Positions 1 to 12,000 of a DNA stretch of 64,000 nt are shown one piece after another (position 1 is the first letter of the stretch; each line of letters starts with the position of its first letter). Made by a program: the position numbers. This DNA comes from Candidatus Babeliales bacterium (lineage in GTDB: Bacteria; Babelota; Babeliae; Babelales; JBFXEV01). The stretch is taken from the NCBI GenBank assembly GCA_050179755.1, contig JBFXEV010000001.1:425994-489993 (forward strand), given 5' to 3'.

Positions 1-3000
1 TAAATTCTTTTTTCAACGCAAACATTGGAAATCATTGATTCAATTTTCGTTTTATCATATATATACACCAAATAATATGTTTTAATGATAACTATCTTTC
101 TATTCTTCAAATTTAACAAAAACTATCTATTTTCTAATTCTTCATTTGTTTCAATTACATATACATATACCCCTGCTAACATATCTAATAATAAATTTAA
201 ATATGCAAGATAATCGGTAGATGCTTCAACTTCATCAATATGCAACCGGCGCTTAAATGGTTCTTCAGGGTATAACTTTACTGAATAATTCACAAATACT
301 ACTGCAGCACGCAAATCGCCCTTTTGAATGCCAAAAAAGTATCGTTGCTTCTTTGTTAATGAGTCTAGTATATCTTGAGCAATTATTTCGCTATTTTCAG
401 TGATTACTTGAGATGTATTTATAAAAATACCAGAACTTTCAGCATTCTTTAAAATCATCTTATAGATGTCTAATGCACTATCCGCAGAGTATTCAACACT
501 ATACTGAGCATGGAAAAGCTTAATTTCTTTATTCATACATTACTCAACATTCATTGCTATGTCATATATAGAAAATTCATGTATCAATTCAACAAAAATA
601 CGCATATAATGCACCATATCAATATCATAAAAATCACCAATCGAAAGACCTATCTCTTTTTTATCACAATCTCGCGGATGTGACGCAATAAAAAACAACT
701 CTCCATTTAATCTACCGGTAATTGCATAAGTAAAATATACATTTTCTGTCATTAATGCATCCACAGCTTCATCCACATTAGCAAATTTATAGGTATCGTC
801 TACAGAAGAATATTCTAACCCTAACCGCATTCCTTTCTCTAATATTTGTTTAATATTTGCTCGTGTATAATACGCTCTTAATTCGATCGAATAAGAAAAT
901 GCCATCCCCATAGTTATATTACCTTGAAAGATATGTGATTCTTGATTAATTTTTCTTTTACAATATGCGGAACAGGATTACTATAATACACTTCATATAA
1001 TTTTCCTTCCCTTTCAGCCAGCGAACGCATATAGCAAAGACGCGATATATGATCATCTATTTTGTCAATCTTGTCCCAATAATAATTCTTACATTCTATC
1101 CATTTTGATGCAGTTACCAAATCAATTTCTCCTTGCGGCACTTTTCTACCAAACTCTATAATCGATTCACCGCGTCTAACTAAAAAATTTGCAGATTTAA
1201 TTTCATACCCCGCACCGCGCGCAGTGCTTATTGCTCCTCCCTCTTTATTGAAATTATTAATAAATTTTTGAAAAGGGCCCTCTTTAGACAAAAAACCTTT
1301 TGTATCTTTAAAATTTTTATAAGCAAAATCTAATTCCGCATACTCTAAGCCTATAGATTGCATAGCATTATGCATCGGCACTGTATCTAATTCTTTCAAC
1401 TTCGATATTGGCTCATCAGGTAACCAGTTTCTCGGCTTTTCTTTTTTTAAACGCTGAGCTCCATCACCACCATTCTGTGACAGCAGCGTCAAGCCAGGTG
1501 ACGCCTTAGAAGCAACATCAAAAACTTCACCAAGCGTACCGCCAGCAATTTCTATCGCGCTCGCACTTGCATTCATAATATCTGCAAGCGCTGCATCATA
1601 ACAAATTGCAGCTTGCATGGTGCTTGGATCTAGTGGTAAATTTAAAAAATCACTATTCTCTAAAAATCTACTCAATCCTGATCCGGCATTTTTACTCAAC
1701 ATGCCCAATGCACCAAAGGTAACGCTCGTTAACGTAGATTCCACCGCATAAGCAGTGCCTACTTCTATGCCTTTTAGCATGGTATCATAATCAAAATCAT
1801 GGCATATCTTTGTTAAAGCATTCTTAACATCAAGCATTGTTTGGCGGGCGGCAAATACGTCTCGCTTCACAAGGCCCCAATACGTTATCTTGCCCTGCTG
1901 CAGGTCAATCGCATCTTGCAATGATTGCTCCATGTAGCGCAGCGTGTAATGACCTGCCTTATTGCCAATAACATGCACTGTTTTTGCAAGGCCGTATAAT
2001 GTGTTGCAAGCAGTATCAATCGGATGCAGCACTTTATTTGCGTAATTTACACCTCCTTTTGCTGCTCCTCTGCCCACTGCGGCGCTAATATCACACGTAA
2101 TCTCTTTTACTTGCAGCGTTAACTTGTATAATCCATGGCAAAAATCAGCAAATGAAAAAGCGTCGGCTACACGCCCTCTCTGATTATGCACGTGGCCTGC
2201 ATGCGCAAAGCGCGTAAGTGTTGATGCAATTGGCTTATAATTATAATCTTGCTGATACCGCAGTTTGCCTGCACCGTTGAGAATATCCACAATCTCTTGA
2301 TGCAAGACGCGTTGAATTTGGTTGCCATAACATTTTGGATATGTTGTTGTTGCAATTCCTTCTTCCTGCATCAAACAAAAAGCTTCATGAGTAATCCGAT
2401 AAGTTTCTTCTTGCCATATTTGATTACCCGTCAAATAATCATGCAGAGCCTCTGTGCGCTTTACTCTATACTGACGGGGCGTTAACGCATGTATATCATC
2501 ATATACTTCTATTTGTTGATATAACGCATAGTGCTCTTGCAGTGCTTGCTGTGTTTCACCAAAAATCTGTGCAATCTGCTTTTTATAAACATGCTGTTCT
2601 TCAAGTTTTCTTTTTGCTTGATTTTGAGCTTCTAATTCATATGCATGTTGAGCGGCTGCCTGCTCTGCTTGTTTTAATTTCTCTTGTTTTTCATGCACAA
2701 ATGATGGATGCTGATATTCTTCCTCTTCTTGCTTTCTTTTCTCTTTTTTATCTGAGCTCTTTTTAAATATACTAACAAAACATTTGCCTGCAGCGTATGC
2801 AAAAACACAAGTACCAACTATTACGCTAGCTGCTGCTTCAGCCGAATCTTTCACAAAACTAAATTCATTTTGTGCATAGAGTTGTTACATTTGGCCAAAC
2901 AAAAATAACCAAAGTAAAGCAAGATGTTTTATTTTCATATGTACTCCTAAGATGTATAAAAACTATGTGCAAGTATAATCCCAAAAGTAAACATGTAAAG

Positions 3001-9000: not shown

Positions 9001-12000
9001 TGAAAGCAACCTTTTTACTTTGTCTTCGGAAATTTTATCCCAGAACCAATCTTTACACTCGATCCACTTAGTTTCTGTAACTATATCAATTTCACAATCT
9101 AGCACTTTTTTACCAAATTCAATTATACGTTCTTTATTTTTAAATAGTCTATTGGCTGTTTTAATTTCAAAAGCTGCTCCTTGAGCAGTTTTTGTACTTT
9201 TCGCTGCTCTAAAATTATTAATAAATTTTTGGAATGGACCATCTTTAGTTAAAAATCCCTTTATATCTTTAAATTGCTCATAAGTTATTCTTAACTCTTC
9301 ATATTCAAGTCCTACTCTTTGCATTTGATGATATGTTGATGGAGTGTTTAATTCTTCTAATTTTAAACATGCTTCCTCAGATAGCCAGTTTCTTGGCTTT
9401 TCTCTAGGAGCATTTTGACTGTTTTGAGTATTATTGCCAAATCCACTTATTTGTGCGCCGTCATCAGACGTACTATTTGGTCCACTGCCTCCTGATCCAG
9501 CATTCGATGCCAATGTTAACACAGGAGCTATTTTAGATGCTGCGTCAAAAGCCCCACTAGCTATTTGAACAGCACCTGCACTTGCATTCATAATATCTGC
9601 AAGCGCTGCATCATAACAAATTGCCGCCTGCATAGTGCTTGGATCTAATGGTAAATTTAAAAAATCGCTATTCTCTAAAAATCTACTCAATCCTGATCCG
9701 GCATTTTTGCTCAACATGCCCAATGCACCAAAGGTAACGCTCGTTAACGTAGATTCCACCGCATAAGCAGTGCCTACTTCTATGCCTTTTAGCATGGTAT
9801 CATAATCAAAATCATGGCATATCTTTGTTAAAGCATTCTTAACATCAAGCATTGTTTGGCGGGCGGCAAATACGTCTCGCTTCACAAGGCCCCAATACGT
9901 TATCTTGCCCTGCTGCAGGTCAATCGCATCTTGCAATGATTGCTCCATGTAGCGCAGCGTGTAATGACCTGCCTTATTGCCAATAACATGCACTGTTTTT
10001 GCAAGGCCGTATAATGTGTTGCAAGCAGTATCAATCGGATGCAGCACTTTATTTGCGTAATTTACACCTCCTTTTGCTGCTCCTCTGCCCACTGCGGCGC
10101 TAATATCACACGTAATCTCTTTTACTTGCAGCGTTAACTTGTATAATCCATGGCAAAAATCAGCAAATGAAAAAGCGTCGGCTACACGCCCTCTCTGATT
10201 ATGCACGTGGCCTGCATGCGCAAAGCGCGTAAGTGTTGATGCAATTGGCTTATAATTATAATCTTGCTGATACCGCAGTTTGCCTGCACCGTTGAGAATA
10301 TCCACAATCTCTTGATGCAAGACGCGTTGAATTTGATTGCCATAACATTTTGGATATGTTGTTGTTGCAATTCCTTCTTCCTGCATCAAACAAAAAGCTT
10401 CATGCGTAATTTGATACGTCTGTTCTTGCCATACGTGATTACCCGTCAAACAATCATGCAGAGCCTCTGTGCGCTTTACTCTATATTGATGGGGAGTTAA
10501 CGCATGTATATCATCATATACTTCTATCTGTTGATATAACGCATAGTGTTCTTGCAGTTCTTGCTGTGTTTCACTAAAAATCTGCGCCGTCTGCTTTTTA
10601 TAAACACGCTGTTCTTCACATTTTCTTTTTGCTTGATTTTGAACTTCTAATTCATATGCATGTTGGGCAGCTGCTTGCTCTGCTTGCTTTAATTTTTCTT
10701 GTTTTTCACGCACAAATGATAGATGCTGATATTCTTCCTCTTCCTGCTTTCTTTTCTCTTTTTTATCTGAGCTCTTTTTAAATATACTAACAAAACATTT
10801 GCCTGCAGCGTATGCTAAAACACAAGTACCAACTATTACGCTAGCTGCTGCTTCAGCCGAATCTTTCACAAAACTAAATTCATTTTGTGCATAGAGTTGT
10901 TGCGTTTGACCAAAAACAAACAGCCAAAGTAAGGCAAGATGTTTTATTTTCATGAGTGCTCCTTAGATGTATAAAAACTATGTGCAAGTATAATCCCAAA
11001 AGTAAACATGTAAAGAAAAAACATCTCGATATATTGATTAAATCAATGTATTGAATACATAAAAATGATATTTTAGCGCGCAATAATAAGCTTTTTATAC
11101 ACTACTACTCAGCAAGACGTGCTATAACCTCTTTATTTACTTCTCTTTTTTCTGCAGCGCGCATTGCATGTTTCCACATAACATCACGCACATTATAGCC
11201 CGGGTGATGTGCTGCATTATAAGCTTCAGCCACCTTAAACCCGATGAACAGTTCTAGTATTTCTGCCGTCTCGCGCATCTTCCATAAACGCTGCATTTCT
11301 TGCGAAAGATCATGCACTGTTTTGCCCGTGTGCAAGTTAGGCATACTCACCGGCATGTCCATTAGCCTTGTATCATCAGATGCCCATGCCACCCTTGGCC
11401 ATAAAAGATATACTAGAGTCCTCAGTTTTTCTAATTGCCCTTTATAGCGATAACTATTGTACAGTAATACTTCAATTGGTTTTAGATGATCATAGTTTTC
11501 TAGCAACTTATCACCGTCCAAACTGCGCACAAAATCAAACACAGCCGGGTCCATTAAGGCGCCATGCTCTGCAAGCGCGTGATACATTGTATTACCTTCA
11601 TAATCTTGTTTGTTCACATCAATATACTTTGCAACCAATTTCGCCATGGCAACTGAACGCGGGCAAAAAGATCTGTGCACGTCAGCATAAAGCTTGTGCC
11701 GTAGCATGTATTGTATAAACGCACAATCATCTTCAAGAAAAGCATGCTTTACCATGTGGCGCAATTCAGAACTATCAAATAAATATCCCAATCGAGTGGC
11801 AATAGTTAATGCAACCCAGCCACGTACGGTATGCCAATTTAAAAATATTCTCTTAAATTCTTGCTCTAAAAGAATACCCGCATCATCAGACACTGAAATA
11901 TCCTTGCGCTTGCACGCCAAAACCCGTCTACCGCCACTATAACTTGCATCTGTGTTTAATACTTTGCAAGATAAATCATCTGATCGCTCGGGCACAAGGG

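Follow-up and report, generated by a model that had tools for sequence, protein, structure and literature searches.

Does a cluster of three long genes that share their beginnings but not their ends encode weapons against other bacteria, tools directed at a host, or proteins that never leave the cell? The window, the whole 64,000-nucleotide stretch of a Candidatus Babeliales genome analysed here, opens on such a cluster (T1, T2 and T3, Table 1); the organism is uncultured and obligately intracellular and lives in protist cells. The survey's finding had interpreted these genes as polymorphic toxins, an interpretation that holds: every structural hallmark checked was present, namely a conserved N-terminal scaffold with variable tips at the extreme C-terminus, tightly linked downstream genes that vary with the tip both here and in other genomes, full genes with orphan pieces of tip or immunity sequence beside them, and a recombination mosaic across scaffolds. 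The polymorphic toxin/immunity cluster is genuine and belongs to a known kind of bacterial weapon system. Our reading of the whole, to which we assign a probability of about 0.68, is a Babeliales (Dependentiae) polymorphic toxin/immunity cluster that is exported and aimed at neighbouring bacteria lacking immunity.

Table 1. Features of the toxin/immunity cluster, in window positions.
Feature	Position	Strand	Description and basis
T3	8872..10953	-	Intact 693-aa toxin (ORF; alignment with T1 and T2)
T3 scaffold domain	9949..10506	-	Residues 150-335; 30-sequence alignment, model
T3 tip	8875..9381	-	Residues 525-693, predicted PD-(D/E)xK nuclease domain; motif, model, fold matches
Ia(T3)	8499..8882	-	127-aa candidate immunity protein, 49% identical to Ia(T1)
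Ib(T3)	8089..8496	-	135 aa, second immunity-family paralogue, 40% identical to Ib(T1)
T2	6024..7895	-	Intact 623-aa toxin, same scaffold as T3, predicted Ntox35 tip
T2 tip	about 6033-6287	-	Residues 537-621, predicted Ntox35 RNase type (Pfam)
I2a	5587..6039	-	150 aa, candidate immunity protein for the Ntox35 tip; helical and TPR-like; overlaps T2 stop
I2b	5129..5635	-	168 aa, second paralogue of the I2a family, 37% identical to I2a
152-aa ORF	4634..5092	-	Hydrophobic segment at the N-terminus; closes the T2 string
T1	914..2938	-	PD-(D/E)xK-tipped toxin (predicted); open frame 914-2854, from GTG at 2854, 646 aa
T1 in-frame TAA	2885..2887	-	Codon 18; CAA in T2 and T3
Ia(T1)	540..911	-	123-aa candidate immunity protein
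Ib(T1)	123..536	-	137 aa, second immunity paralogue
Common upstream region	T3 10954..11103; T2 7896-8069; T1 2939-3116	-	Homology

ORF calling placed the three genes where they had been reported. Behind each tip in the window, the operon continues with genes for one or two small proteins that lack a signal peptide; Ia(T3), one of these, overlaps the T3 stop by 11 nt. T3 comprises, in order, a signal-like segment, a second hydrophobic segment, a charged stretch, the helical scaffold, a Gly/Ser linker and the PD-(D/E)xK tip. In T1, the premature TAA lies beside an ATG where T2 and T3 have ACG, and the signal peptide is cut off because the frame is open only from the internal GTG; the T1 protein probably has no activity, or at any rate is not exported. 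In a second damaged toxin, an 897-aa gene at contig 677202-679895, the tip is broken by stops. The reported number of 14 long toxins was obtained again (424-1307 aa; toxins paired with the earlier gene list by coordinates and lengths), but two of them are damaged; the 14 ORFs amount to 10,215 codons in our own inventory, about 2% of 1,525,295 bases. Pfam families recorded previously were seen again, Ntox35 in T2 and EndoU, Ntox35 and PT-HINT at other loci, with genome-wide totals of four matches for Ntox35 (three over the cut-off), four for EndoU (two over), three for PT-HINT and one for Ntox37. The 152-aa ORF that ends the T2 string matches, at 51% identity, the C-terminal half of a 224-aa ORF lying immediately upstream of the window; the N-terminal half of that longer ORF is an EndoU fragment. 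In the common upstream region, AAGGAG precedes the ATG and there is a TTTACA-16-TATACT site, which the promoter scan lists for T3 and T1; promoter-like sites overall were not found above chance (48 found versus 49 expected). An ankyrin-repeat protein adjoins the cluster at 11105-13060.

Over the first ~465 residues and ~150 nt of DNA before them, T1, T2 and T3 share 92-95% DNA identity across 1522-1661 nt, with homology that begins 145-215 nt ahead of the ATG; repeating the pairwise comparisons returned the shared scaffolds described before, at 93.3% identity over 465 aa for T1/T2 and 88.9% over 515 aa for T2/T3. Informative scaffold sites fall into three blocks (T2=T3 at columns ~100-800, T1=T3 at ~800-1600 and T1=T2 at ~1600-1750), and this mosaic indicates gene conversion among the scaffolds, which has homogenised them. 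The tip and immunity cassettes, judged by sequence, are old, AT-richer alleles shifted among scaffolds, with adjacent orphan cassettes as a reservoir. GC content is 0.40-0.42 in scaffolds, 0.34 in tips and 0.27-0.35 in immunity genes. The T1 and T3 tips share only 52% protein identity despite near-identical scaffolds, and each is 50-55% identical to a tip that a genome of the same genus carries on an unrelated scaffold. The occurrence of one tip on different scaffolds, noted earlier, was reproduced for the T1 tip and a 943-aa toxin at contig 64292-67123 (30.9%, E 4e-20), as was the match of T2 to a 295-aa piece at contig 886564 (33%, E 2e-42). The scaffold's helical domain (model pLDDT 81.4) is present in 57 of 261 Babeliales genomes, with near-invariant residues G205, Q209, H213, N252, A260 and D265 (T3 numbering) in a 30-sequence alignment; Pfam, PDB and fold searches returned no match to a known family or fold.

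The tip of T1 and T3 is a predicted metal-dependent PD-(D/E)xK nuclease. This call formerly rested on the motif, with tip models of low confidence; an AF2 model of this tip now reaches pLDDT 96.5, has the core order alpha-beta-beta-beta-alpha-beta, and matches the folds of PD-(D/E)xK nucleases, solved T6SS and CDI toxins among them. Top Foldseek matches were the nuclease domains of Cdn1 and Card1 (E 9.6e-5 for Cdn1, to 1.4e-3), while VIA comparisons gave Z 9.1 with AF1548 (2.4 A, 98 aligned), 9.0 with Ava_3312 and, among toxins, 7.2 with the T6SS effector PA3907 and 6.8 with both TseT and CdiA-CT. The motif consists of E72, D99 and E108-C109-K110 (tip numbering). Six invariant columns had been reported for a seven-sequence tip alignment, whereas an alignment of 27 tip sequences gives one invariant and eight nearly invariant columns; E72, D99, E108 and K110 are nearly invariant in this set. 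The tip had also been called new: it scores below the Pfam cut-off of Tox-REase-3, but it borders that family and so is not wholly new. Five of 27 family members match Tox-REase-3 at E<=0.1, the T3 and T1 tips have no match to it at E<=10 (Pfam), and the best score in the genome is 13.2 bits against a cut-off of 25. Among 1.84 billion representatives there were 122 relatives of the tip; in all 121 that were locally re-matched, the domain ends no more than 20 aa from the C-terminus. The same scaffold domain occurs in 35 of the 64 relatives of at least 400 aa, and PT-HINT in 2 of 53 long relatives scanned. The tip is present in 75 of 261 Babeliales genomes, a count that is too high for the toxin form, because it takes in short immunity-less nucleases. 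In one relative (P0102) the tip is joined to ankyrin repeats, a layout typical for effectors aimed at a host. The T2 tip is a predicted Ntox35 (BECR-fold) RNase, scoring 27.7 bits as a whole protein and 32.2 as the tip alone against a cut-off of 23.6.

Tip type and next gene co-vary in this genome, as had been reported. The two families described after the PD-(D/E)xK tip are both present, but they are distant paralogues (hhalign 97%, E 1.2e-10, 119 columns): Ia and Ib form one undescribed superfamily of predicted immunity proteins, laid out as single genes, tandem pairs or fused doubles, with fused Ia-Ib doubles found in other genomes. Ia has no Pfam match. An Ia-family gene follows five of five long tip-bearing genes here and six of eight tip ORFs overall, and an array of 3-5 Ia paralogues follows the 943-aa toxin. 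In other genomes, 18 of 29 loci and 14 of 15 long toxins have an Ia-family gene directly downstream, at spacings from a 45 nt overlap to a 33 nt gap. The I2a family follows all three Ntox35-like tips having it in this genome, and 10 of 29 Ntox35 loci in other genomes have it directly 3' of the tip; I2b has a weak match to TPR_CcmH_CycH (E 0.0085, below the Pfam cut-off). In 10 of the 29 PD-(D/E)xK-tip loci, short nucleases with the same domain as the T1 and T3 tips have N-terminal hydrophobic segments (by eye) and no linked immunity gene, so Sec export alone seems not to demand immunity. The immunity linkage points to a probable bacterial target.

We therefore favour the following course of events in conditional form. 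The toxin would leave via Sec and continue perhaps through two secretins, the sole outer-membrane channels found in the genome. The small downstream proteins would be its cognate immunity factors in the cytoplasm, binding the nuclease and blocking it. Entering neighbouring bacteria without the matching immunity protein, the tip would degrade their nucleic acids; the targets would most plausibly be other Babeliales in a common host cell or vacuole. A genome profile search returned no TolC-type OEP and no Hcp, and a Pfam scan and genome searches gave no known polymorphic-toxin delivery domain or system. The available text on published TM6 genomes describes the T2SS as their sole secretion system. 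Passages of Zhang et al. 2012 (PMC3482391) describe intraspecific toxin systems as rare in obligately intracellular bacteria; this rarity and the obligately intracellular life count against the competitor encounters that our preferred reading assumes.

That lifestyle speaks for host-directed effectors, an unlikely alternative in which the nucleases attack or scavenge protist nucleic acids and the downstream proteins shield the producer before export. The neighbours are typical of host interaction, such as the adjoining ankyrin-repeat protein, and P0102 and the short immunity-less versions of the nuclease can be read in the same way. A figure legend in the Babela massiliensis paper includes a PD-DExK nuclease family in its list of expanded families and host-interaction islands, and the Chromulinavorax paper, in the part available, proposes secreted nucleases degrading host structures. 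The long toxins, unlike the short nucleases, nearly always have linked, co-varying immunity genes, and orphan cassettes and immunity arrays are kept, the pattern expected where sister cells need shielding from incoming toxin; missing immunity genes are given as a mark of host-directed toxins in the consulted sections of Zhang et al. 2012 (PMC3482391).

Export itself is questioned by the N-terminus, where, by a hydropathy heuristic, the signal-like segment is followed by ~13 residues, a 24-residue hydrophobic stretch and then KKSSDKKEKRK. Under the positive-inside rule, such a basic-flanked stretch is a stop-transfer anchor that leaves the C-terminal part cytoplasmic; the toxin domain would then stay in the producer's cytoplasm, a poor fit to a secreted weapon. 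This order, the failure of genome searches to find a dedicated toxin secretion system and the T1 frame, which stays open without the signal peptide, would suit a toxin that stays anchored in the inner membrane on its cytoplasmic side, blocked by its immunity proteins, and serves as an element of addiction, abortive infection or stress suicide. Such an element is improbable, since PADLOC gave no match for nine proteins, the same tips occur in this genome on other scaffolds that have a single cleavable-looking signal peptide and, directly after it, a self-cleaving pretoxin-HINT domain, an export-and-release architecture, and toxin-antitoxin modules are not typically made of proteins as long as 600-1300 aa with exchangeable tips and orphan cassettes.

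Among the closest known systems is MafB/MafI of Neisseria, the 'T2SS (MafBN)' class of Zhang et al. 2012 (PMC3482391). In the available description, both have a signal peptide with a conserved lineage-specific N-terminal domain, a variable C-terminal toxin with the immunity gene directly 3', and multiple copies per genome with orphan cassettes; Ntox35 is listed for that class. A protein-language-model search placed the scaffold near a MafB cluster (score 0.86, a lead only). However, searching the genome with Pfam MafB gave nothing at E<=1, MafB was not among the matches of the Pfam scan either, the genes upstream of the window toxins include no MafA-like lipoprotein, these toxins have the extra hydrophobic segment past the signal peptide, and the scaffold domain occurs in 12 of 21 families of the order, whereas MafB/MafI is known from one genus. 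The polymorphic toxins of Odyssella, an endosymbiont of amoebae, and the Amoebophilus APD1/APD2 effectors likewise belong to bacteria intracellular in protists and combine constant N-termini with polymorphic C-termini, but differ, as far as the sections consulted describe them, in phylum, scaffold, immunity families and REase clade; the Amoebophilus effectors are described there as without immunity genes and read as host-directed (PMC3482391). Tox-REase-3 (PF15647), TseT/TsiT (7dym), PA3907-PA3908 (9oz0) and CdiA-CT (4g6v) share with the tip the restriction-endonuclease fold and an acidic...ExK site at the extreme C-terminus of modular toxins. The signature published for Tox-REase-3, as given in the excerpt, is [KR]ExD, K, ExQxK, whereas the window tips have E...D...E-C-K; the window immunity proteins, unlike the Tox-REase-3 partners, are not SUKH or Imm7 by Pfam, and delivery, unlike that of TseT, PA3907 and CdiA-CT, would not be by T6SS or CDI. 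The diffusible S8-Ntox35 toxin of Staphylococcus aureus is also a secreted polymorphic toxin with an Ntox35 RNase tip, but in the available account it is Gram-positive, activated by an S8 peptidase and equipped with a BetaH domain, none of which was seen in the window toxins by Pfam (10.1101/2025.07.24.666436). The cluster is a familiar type of bacterial weapon, assembled here from parts confined to the Babeliales lineage.

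The cluster consists of three minus-strand paralogous toxin genes, T1, T2 and T3, which share an N-terminal scaffold and differ in their C-terminal tips, together with small ORFs that start at most 3 nt from, or overlap, the end of each toxin gene and are candidate immunity genes. The genome is a single contig of 1,525,295 bases with 39% GC, in which the survey's finding had placed at least 14 long toxins occupying about 2% of the sequence. These were recovered as 14 ORFs of 424–1307 aa (10,215 codons in total, ~2% of the genome), but two of them are damaged. In T1, the ATG at 2938 is followed by an in-frame TAA at codon 18 (2885–2887), where T2 and T3 have CAA, so that translation could start only at the GTG matching V29, leaving T1 without a signal peptide; in an 897-aa toxin gene elsewhere, stops interrupt the tip. 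A plus-strand gene pair separates the T1 and T2 strings, and an ankyrin-repeat gene lies directly upstream of T3; in the available portion of the Chromulinavorax paper, such genes in Dependentiae are usually read as host-interaction effectors. Three DNA runs, all from one landfill-metagenome study, contain the stretch, and the genome may have been assembled from them; no RNA runs were listed. Short-read contigs of these runs covered the unique parts of the tips and immunity genes with 0 differences; they broke within the repeated scaffolds and showed neither joints nor alternative junctions of the tips, a result that bears on neither expression nor a switch of tips. A conserved TTTACA-16-TATACT was considered as a promoter and is at most suggestive, because a scan found 48 sites where 49 were expected.

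Features of the toxin cluster and related loci (window positions; contig positions where marked)
Feature	Position	Strand	Length	Remarks
T1	914–2854	-	646 aa	length from GTG
First ORF after T1 (Ia)	540–911	-	123 aa	
Second ORF after T1 (Ib)	123–536	-	137 aa	
T2	6024–7895	-	623 aa	
First ORF after T2	5587–6039	-	150 aa	
Second ORF after T2	5129–5635	-	168 aa	
Third ORF after T2	4634–5092	-	152 aa	last gene of T2 operon
T3	8872–10953	-	693 aa	
First ORF after T3 (Ia)	8499–8882	-	127 aa	
Second ORF after T3 (Ib)	8089–8496	-	135 aa	
Membrane protein gene	3212–3973	+	253 aa	multi-pass; weak similarity to DUF975 (E 0.0016, below cut-off)
Protein gene	3982–4494	+	170 aa	assigned to no Pfam, NCBIfam or PADLOC family
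Ankyrin-repeat protein gene	11105–13060	-	651 aa	Ank_4, E 1e-9
Orphan tip	contig, within 424531–425956		101 aa	
ORF with EndoU fragment	contig 424918–425592	-	224 aa	N-terminal fragment (E 0.005, below cut-off)
Small ORF	contig, within 424531–425956		121 aa	member of 8-copy family found after EndoU tips
Toxin gene with interrupted tip	contig 677202–679895		897 aa	
Paired or fused immunity genes	contig 676247–677095			
Paired or fused immunity genes	contig 692777–693733			
Paired or fused immunity genes	contig 1054942–1055805			
Second dense cassette array	contig 1053110–1058811			
Secretin gene	contig 499870–500352			127 bits; 10–15 kb beyond window end (both secretins)
Secretin gene	contig 504582–505052			118 bits

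The identities between scaffolds described in the survey were reproduced, at 93.3% over 465 aa for T1/T2 and 88.9% over 515 aa for T2/T3, with divergence beyond. At the DNA level, the three units are 92–95% identical over 1522–1661 nt, from 145–215 nt upstream of the ATG to the end of the scaffold. The informative sites fall into three clean blocks (T2=T3, T1=T3, T1=T2), a pattern impossible under a single tree, which calls for two or more boundaries of conversion or crossover. The tips of T1 and T3 share 52% identity, and each is 50–55% identical to a tip in another genome of the same genus, where it is carried by a scaffold without BLAST similarity to that of T1–T3. GC content is 0.40–0.42 in the scaffolds, 0.34 in the tips and 0.27–0.35 in the immunity genes. 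Alike scaffolds, diverged tips and this GC step together argue that the scaffolds have been kept alike and that the cassettes are old alleles. The occurrence of the same tip types on other scaffolds of this genome, also claimed in the survey, was found again.

A word-based search with the scaffold returned only two relatives outside this genome, one of them with an EndoU tip. In a whole-genome search, its central part (mainly T3 residues ~156–325) was found in 57 of the 261 species representatives of the phylum, all of which are listed in the same order, and in 12 of 21 families, with up to eight copies per genome in frames of ~500–1500 aa. Nine ORFs of this genome contain the domain, which spans the scaffold types A (that of T1–T3) and B distinguished earlier. 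An alignment of 30 members shows near-invariant G205, Q209, H213, N252, A260 and D265, and the predicted structure (pLDDT 81.4; >90 at residues ~10–130) is helical with a small hairpin. No Pfam family matched more than one of the 30 members at E<=0.05, no PDB sequence fell below E 0.07, and the best Foldseek match to the model had E 0.27, an absence of matches that is not taken as a new fold. A resemblance to designed helical bundles was set aside, as the best Z score of VIA, a structure aligner independent of Foldseek, was 8.9, a value that helical models can be expected to reach by noise. A language-model look-up placed the scaffold near the MafB and PT-TG clusters (0.85–0.86) and serves as a lead only; identity with either was rejected, since the Pfam models of both match nothing in the genome (MafB PF06255 at E<=1). 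A VENN-like junction motif, D-x-A-x-K-x-x-P-x-L.., was seen in the close scaffold-A subfamily and is not general: of the long relatives of the T1/T3 tip, 4 of the 35 that bear the scaffold have it, and 0 of the other 28.

The tip shared by T1 and T3 gave only chance-level Pfam matches at E<=10, with a weak match of T1 to UPF0102 (E 0.039), and PDB sequence searches were without a significant match (best E 0.39–0.71). HMMER found 122 relatives at E<=0.001 among 1.84 billion representatives, and the short ones among these were used to build a 27-sequence alignment in which C109 is invariant and E72, D99, E108, K110 and W114 are nearly so. The AlphaFold2 model from this alignment (pLDDT 96.5, pTM 0.90) has a core in the order alpha-beta-beta-beta-alpha-beta (helix, three strands, helix, strand), with E on helix 1, D on strand 2 and ExK on strand 3. 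In Foldseek, the nuclease domains of Cdn1 (E 9.6e-5) and Card1 matched it best, and NucS/EndoMS and SfsA came next; VIA ranked AF1548 (Z 9.1; 2.4 A over 98 residues) and Ava_3312 (Z 9.0) ahead of Cdn1, Card1, VC1899 and Can2, and among solved interbacterial toxins gave PA3907-PA3908 (Z 7.2), TseT (Z 6.8) and CdiA-CT (Z 6.8). Through this fold and the E...D...ExK residues, the tip comes under the definition of the PD-(D/E)xK nucleases; the survey's assignment is thus borne out by the model, and the tip is a predicted nuclease whose substrate could be either DNA or RNA. CdiA-CT members of the PD-(D/E)xK fold are tRNases.

The nearest named family is Tox-REase-3 (PF15647), which 5 of the 27 aligned members match at E<=0.1. 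With a gathering cut-off of 25 bits, the highest score of any relative is 24.8, in a long one; the window tips are without a match at E<=10, and the genome's best score, 13.2 bits, is in another toxin. The signature of Tox-REase-3, as given in the available part of its published description, is unlike that of the T1/T3 tip. We therefore call the tip an unclassified clade of REase-fold toxins bordering Tox-REase-3, the fold itself being known. All 121 relatives re-matched locally, proteins of ~80 to 1625 aa, have no more than 20 aa between the end of the domain and the C-terminus. The T1–T3 scaffold domain is present in 35 of the 64 relatives of at least 400 aa, and Pfam on 53 long relatives found PT-HINT in two, ankyrin repeats in one, a near match to Tox-REase-3 in one, and no known domain in 49. 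The REase tip occurs in 75 of the 261 genomes (54 of the 189 high-quality ones), with nine matches in this genome. The tip of T2 is of a different kind, matching Ntox35 (PF15534) at 27.7 bits for the whole protein, 32.2 for the tip alone and 29.9 in the genome search, against a cut-off of 23.6; this family was found in 26 of the 261 genomes. Across the genome, there were four matches to Ntox35 (three over the cut-off), four to EndoU (two over), three to PT-HINT and one to Ntox37. The Pfam families named in the survey were thus found again: Ntox35 in T2, and EndoU, Ntox35 and PT-HINT at other loci.

The ORF pairs after T1 and T3 are 49% (Ia) and 40% (Ib) identical to each other. Ia lies directly downstream of the REase tip in 18 of 29 loci elsewhere, at distances from a 45 nt overlap to a 33 nt gap, and in 14 of the 15 in which the tip is on a long protein; in six loci of other genomes, the partner is a 261–289-aa protein with two Ia-type domains. 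In this genome, a member matching the Ia profile follows all five long tip-bearing genes, with an array of 3–5 members after a 943-aa toxin. The survey had described two immunity families after this tip. The linkage held, but an hhalign-type comparison of the Ia (n=13) and Ib (n=8) profiles gave 97% probability and E 1.2e-10 over 119 columns, so that the two are one superfamily, which is found as single candidate immunity genes, tandem pairs or fused doubles. This superfamily had 0 matches in Pfam, NCBIfam and PADLOC, its database relatives being unnamed or "hypothetical" and one labelled Candidatus Dependentiae, and its members lack an N-terminal hydrophobic segment. A complex prediction for the T3 tip with Ia scored 0.07 against a mark of 0.32 and was used neither for nor against the pairing. 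The partners of T2 form a second, helical family of six ORFs (eight domains) in the genome, all beside Ntox35-like tips; it occurs as singles or fused doubles, and at 10 of the 29 Ntox35 loci of other genomes a member comes directly behind the tip. Two unrelated immunity families thus both recur as adjacent paralogues or as a fused two-domain protein, with further examples in this genome (see table), and this recurrence suggests that immunity in the REase and Ntox35 systems would act as a pair.

Three further pieces adjoin the start of the window upstream: an orphan tip, an ORF with an EndoU fragment, and a member of the family found after EndoU tips. The 152-aa ORF after T2 has an N-terminal hydrophobic segment, and its residues 42–143 share 51% identity with the C-terminal half of the 224-aa ORF upstream of the window. 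The shared domain has just two copies in the genome, and the relation may mean that what remains of an orphan tip was fused to a further domain, either an immunity domain or an unknown one. A second dense array begins with a PT-HINT toxin that has a REase tip; after it come an immunity gene of the fused double type, orphan tips of 151 and 96 aa, and another two fused doubles.

The features of polymorphic toxins in the sense of Zhang et al. 2012 are found here in an N-terminal region that is constant and a toxin domain that varies and lies at the very C-terminus, a candidate immunity gene directly downstream that changes with the tip (by gene linkage), and orphan tip and immunity cassettes with recombination between copies, as seen in the mosaic and the GC step. 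MafB/MafI and the Odyssella polymorphic toxin systems work in a similar way; a Pfam scan of T2 and T3 found no MafB-N domain. With respect to CDI and Rhs/T6SS, Pfam found neither FHA nor RHS repeats in T1–T3. On the features examined, the system falls outside MafB, CDI and Rhs/T6SS. For nine proteins searched, there were 0 PADLOC families at E<=0.01, which gives no indication of anti-phage defence, and 0 NCBIfam matches. Systems of this sort are well known; what is new is a scaffold domain spread across the order, the clade of REase tips, the paired or fused immunity superfamily and the setting in Dependentiae. Among the matches listed, no paper linked polymorphic toxins with the names Dependentiae, Babela, Babelota, Babeliales, Vermiphilaceae or candidate phylum TM6. 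The word "toxin" is absent from the available main text of PMC4776705 and of the Chromulinavorax genome paper, and in the available text of the Babela massiliensis paper (PMC4378268) it refers to toxin-antitoxin pairs only, while a figure legend has a PD-DExK nuclease family among the expanded ones.

How the toxins might leave the cell bears on their function. The toxins have a signal-like N-terminus by a hydropathy heuristic, and in T2, T3 and the other scaffolds of types A and D this segment is followed by another hydrophobic stretch and a cluster of basic residues. These could form a stop-transfer anchor, at odds with simple secretion, and are the basis of a rival reading in which the toxin would never be exported. 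As to a channel, secretins are the only outer-membrane channel family found in the genome; searches gave 0 matches for TolC-type OEP and Hcp, and in a search for TpsB (ShlB) the control itself matched nowhere. The two secretins agree with the two gspD copies reported for all TM6 genomes (PMC4776705, available text). In the available part of Zhang et al. 2012 (PMC3482391), toxins with only a signal peptide form the "T2SS" class, best exemplified by MafB with its lineage-specific N domain, and by analogy T1–T3-type toxins would fall in this class.

The REase family itself offers a comparison that bears on the target. At 10 of the 29 loci elsewhere, short proteins of 191–261 aa have a signal-like hydrophobic N-terminus (by eye, in 10 of 10) directly followed by the REase nuclease, and none of these 10 loci, all in other Babeliales genomes, has a linked immunity gene. 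These short nucleases may be secreted housekeeping or host-directed enzymes ancestral to the toxin tip, or the reverse may hold. If they are exported by Sec without need for immunity, the near-universal immunity of the long forms would mean protection from an incoming toxin and hence a bacterial target, and this contrast suggests that the long-form toxins are aimed at bacteria. In the available text of Zhang et al. 2012 (PMC3482391), intracellular bacteria mostly use toxins without immunity genes, from which it is concluded that they rarely fight conspecifics, Odyssella being an exception. We give a probability of about 0.35 to a Babeliales delivery platform outside the known routes (T5, T6, T7, Rhs, MafB), in which signal-like and hydrophobic segments and an order-wide helical scaffold (G..Q...H / N / D) would carry a private PD-(D/E)xK clade with its private tandem or fused immunity superfamily, for warfare or kin discrimination among bacteria that infect the same protist cell.

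This lineage, which has a reduced genome and is obligately intracellular, devotes ~2% of a 1.5-Mb genome to toxins with candidate immunity genes, and the parts recur across the order (tip, scaffold domain and Ntox35 in 75, 57 and 26 of 261 genomes). The system provides experimental handles in a well-folded predicted nuclease with named putative catalytic residues, an undescribed immunity superfamily and an undescribed scaffold domain, and the last of these should be key to export in a phylum known only for Sec and T2SS/type IV pilus parts. If it is true that the toxins target bacteria, Dependentiae would regularly be under selection from competition inside their host cells.
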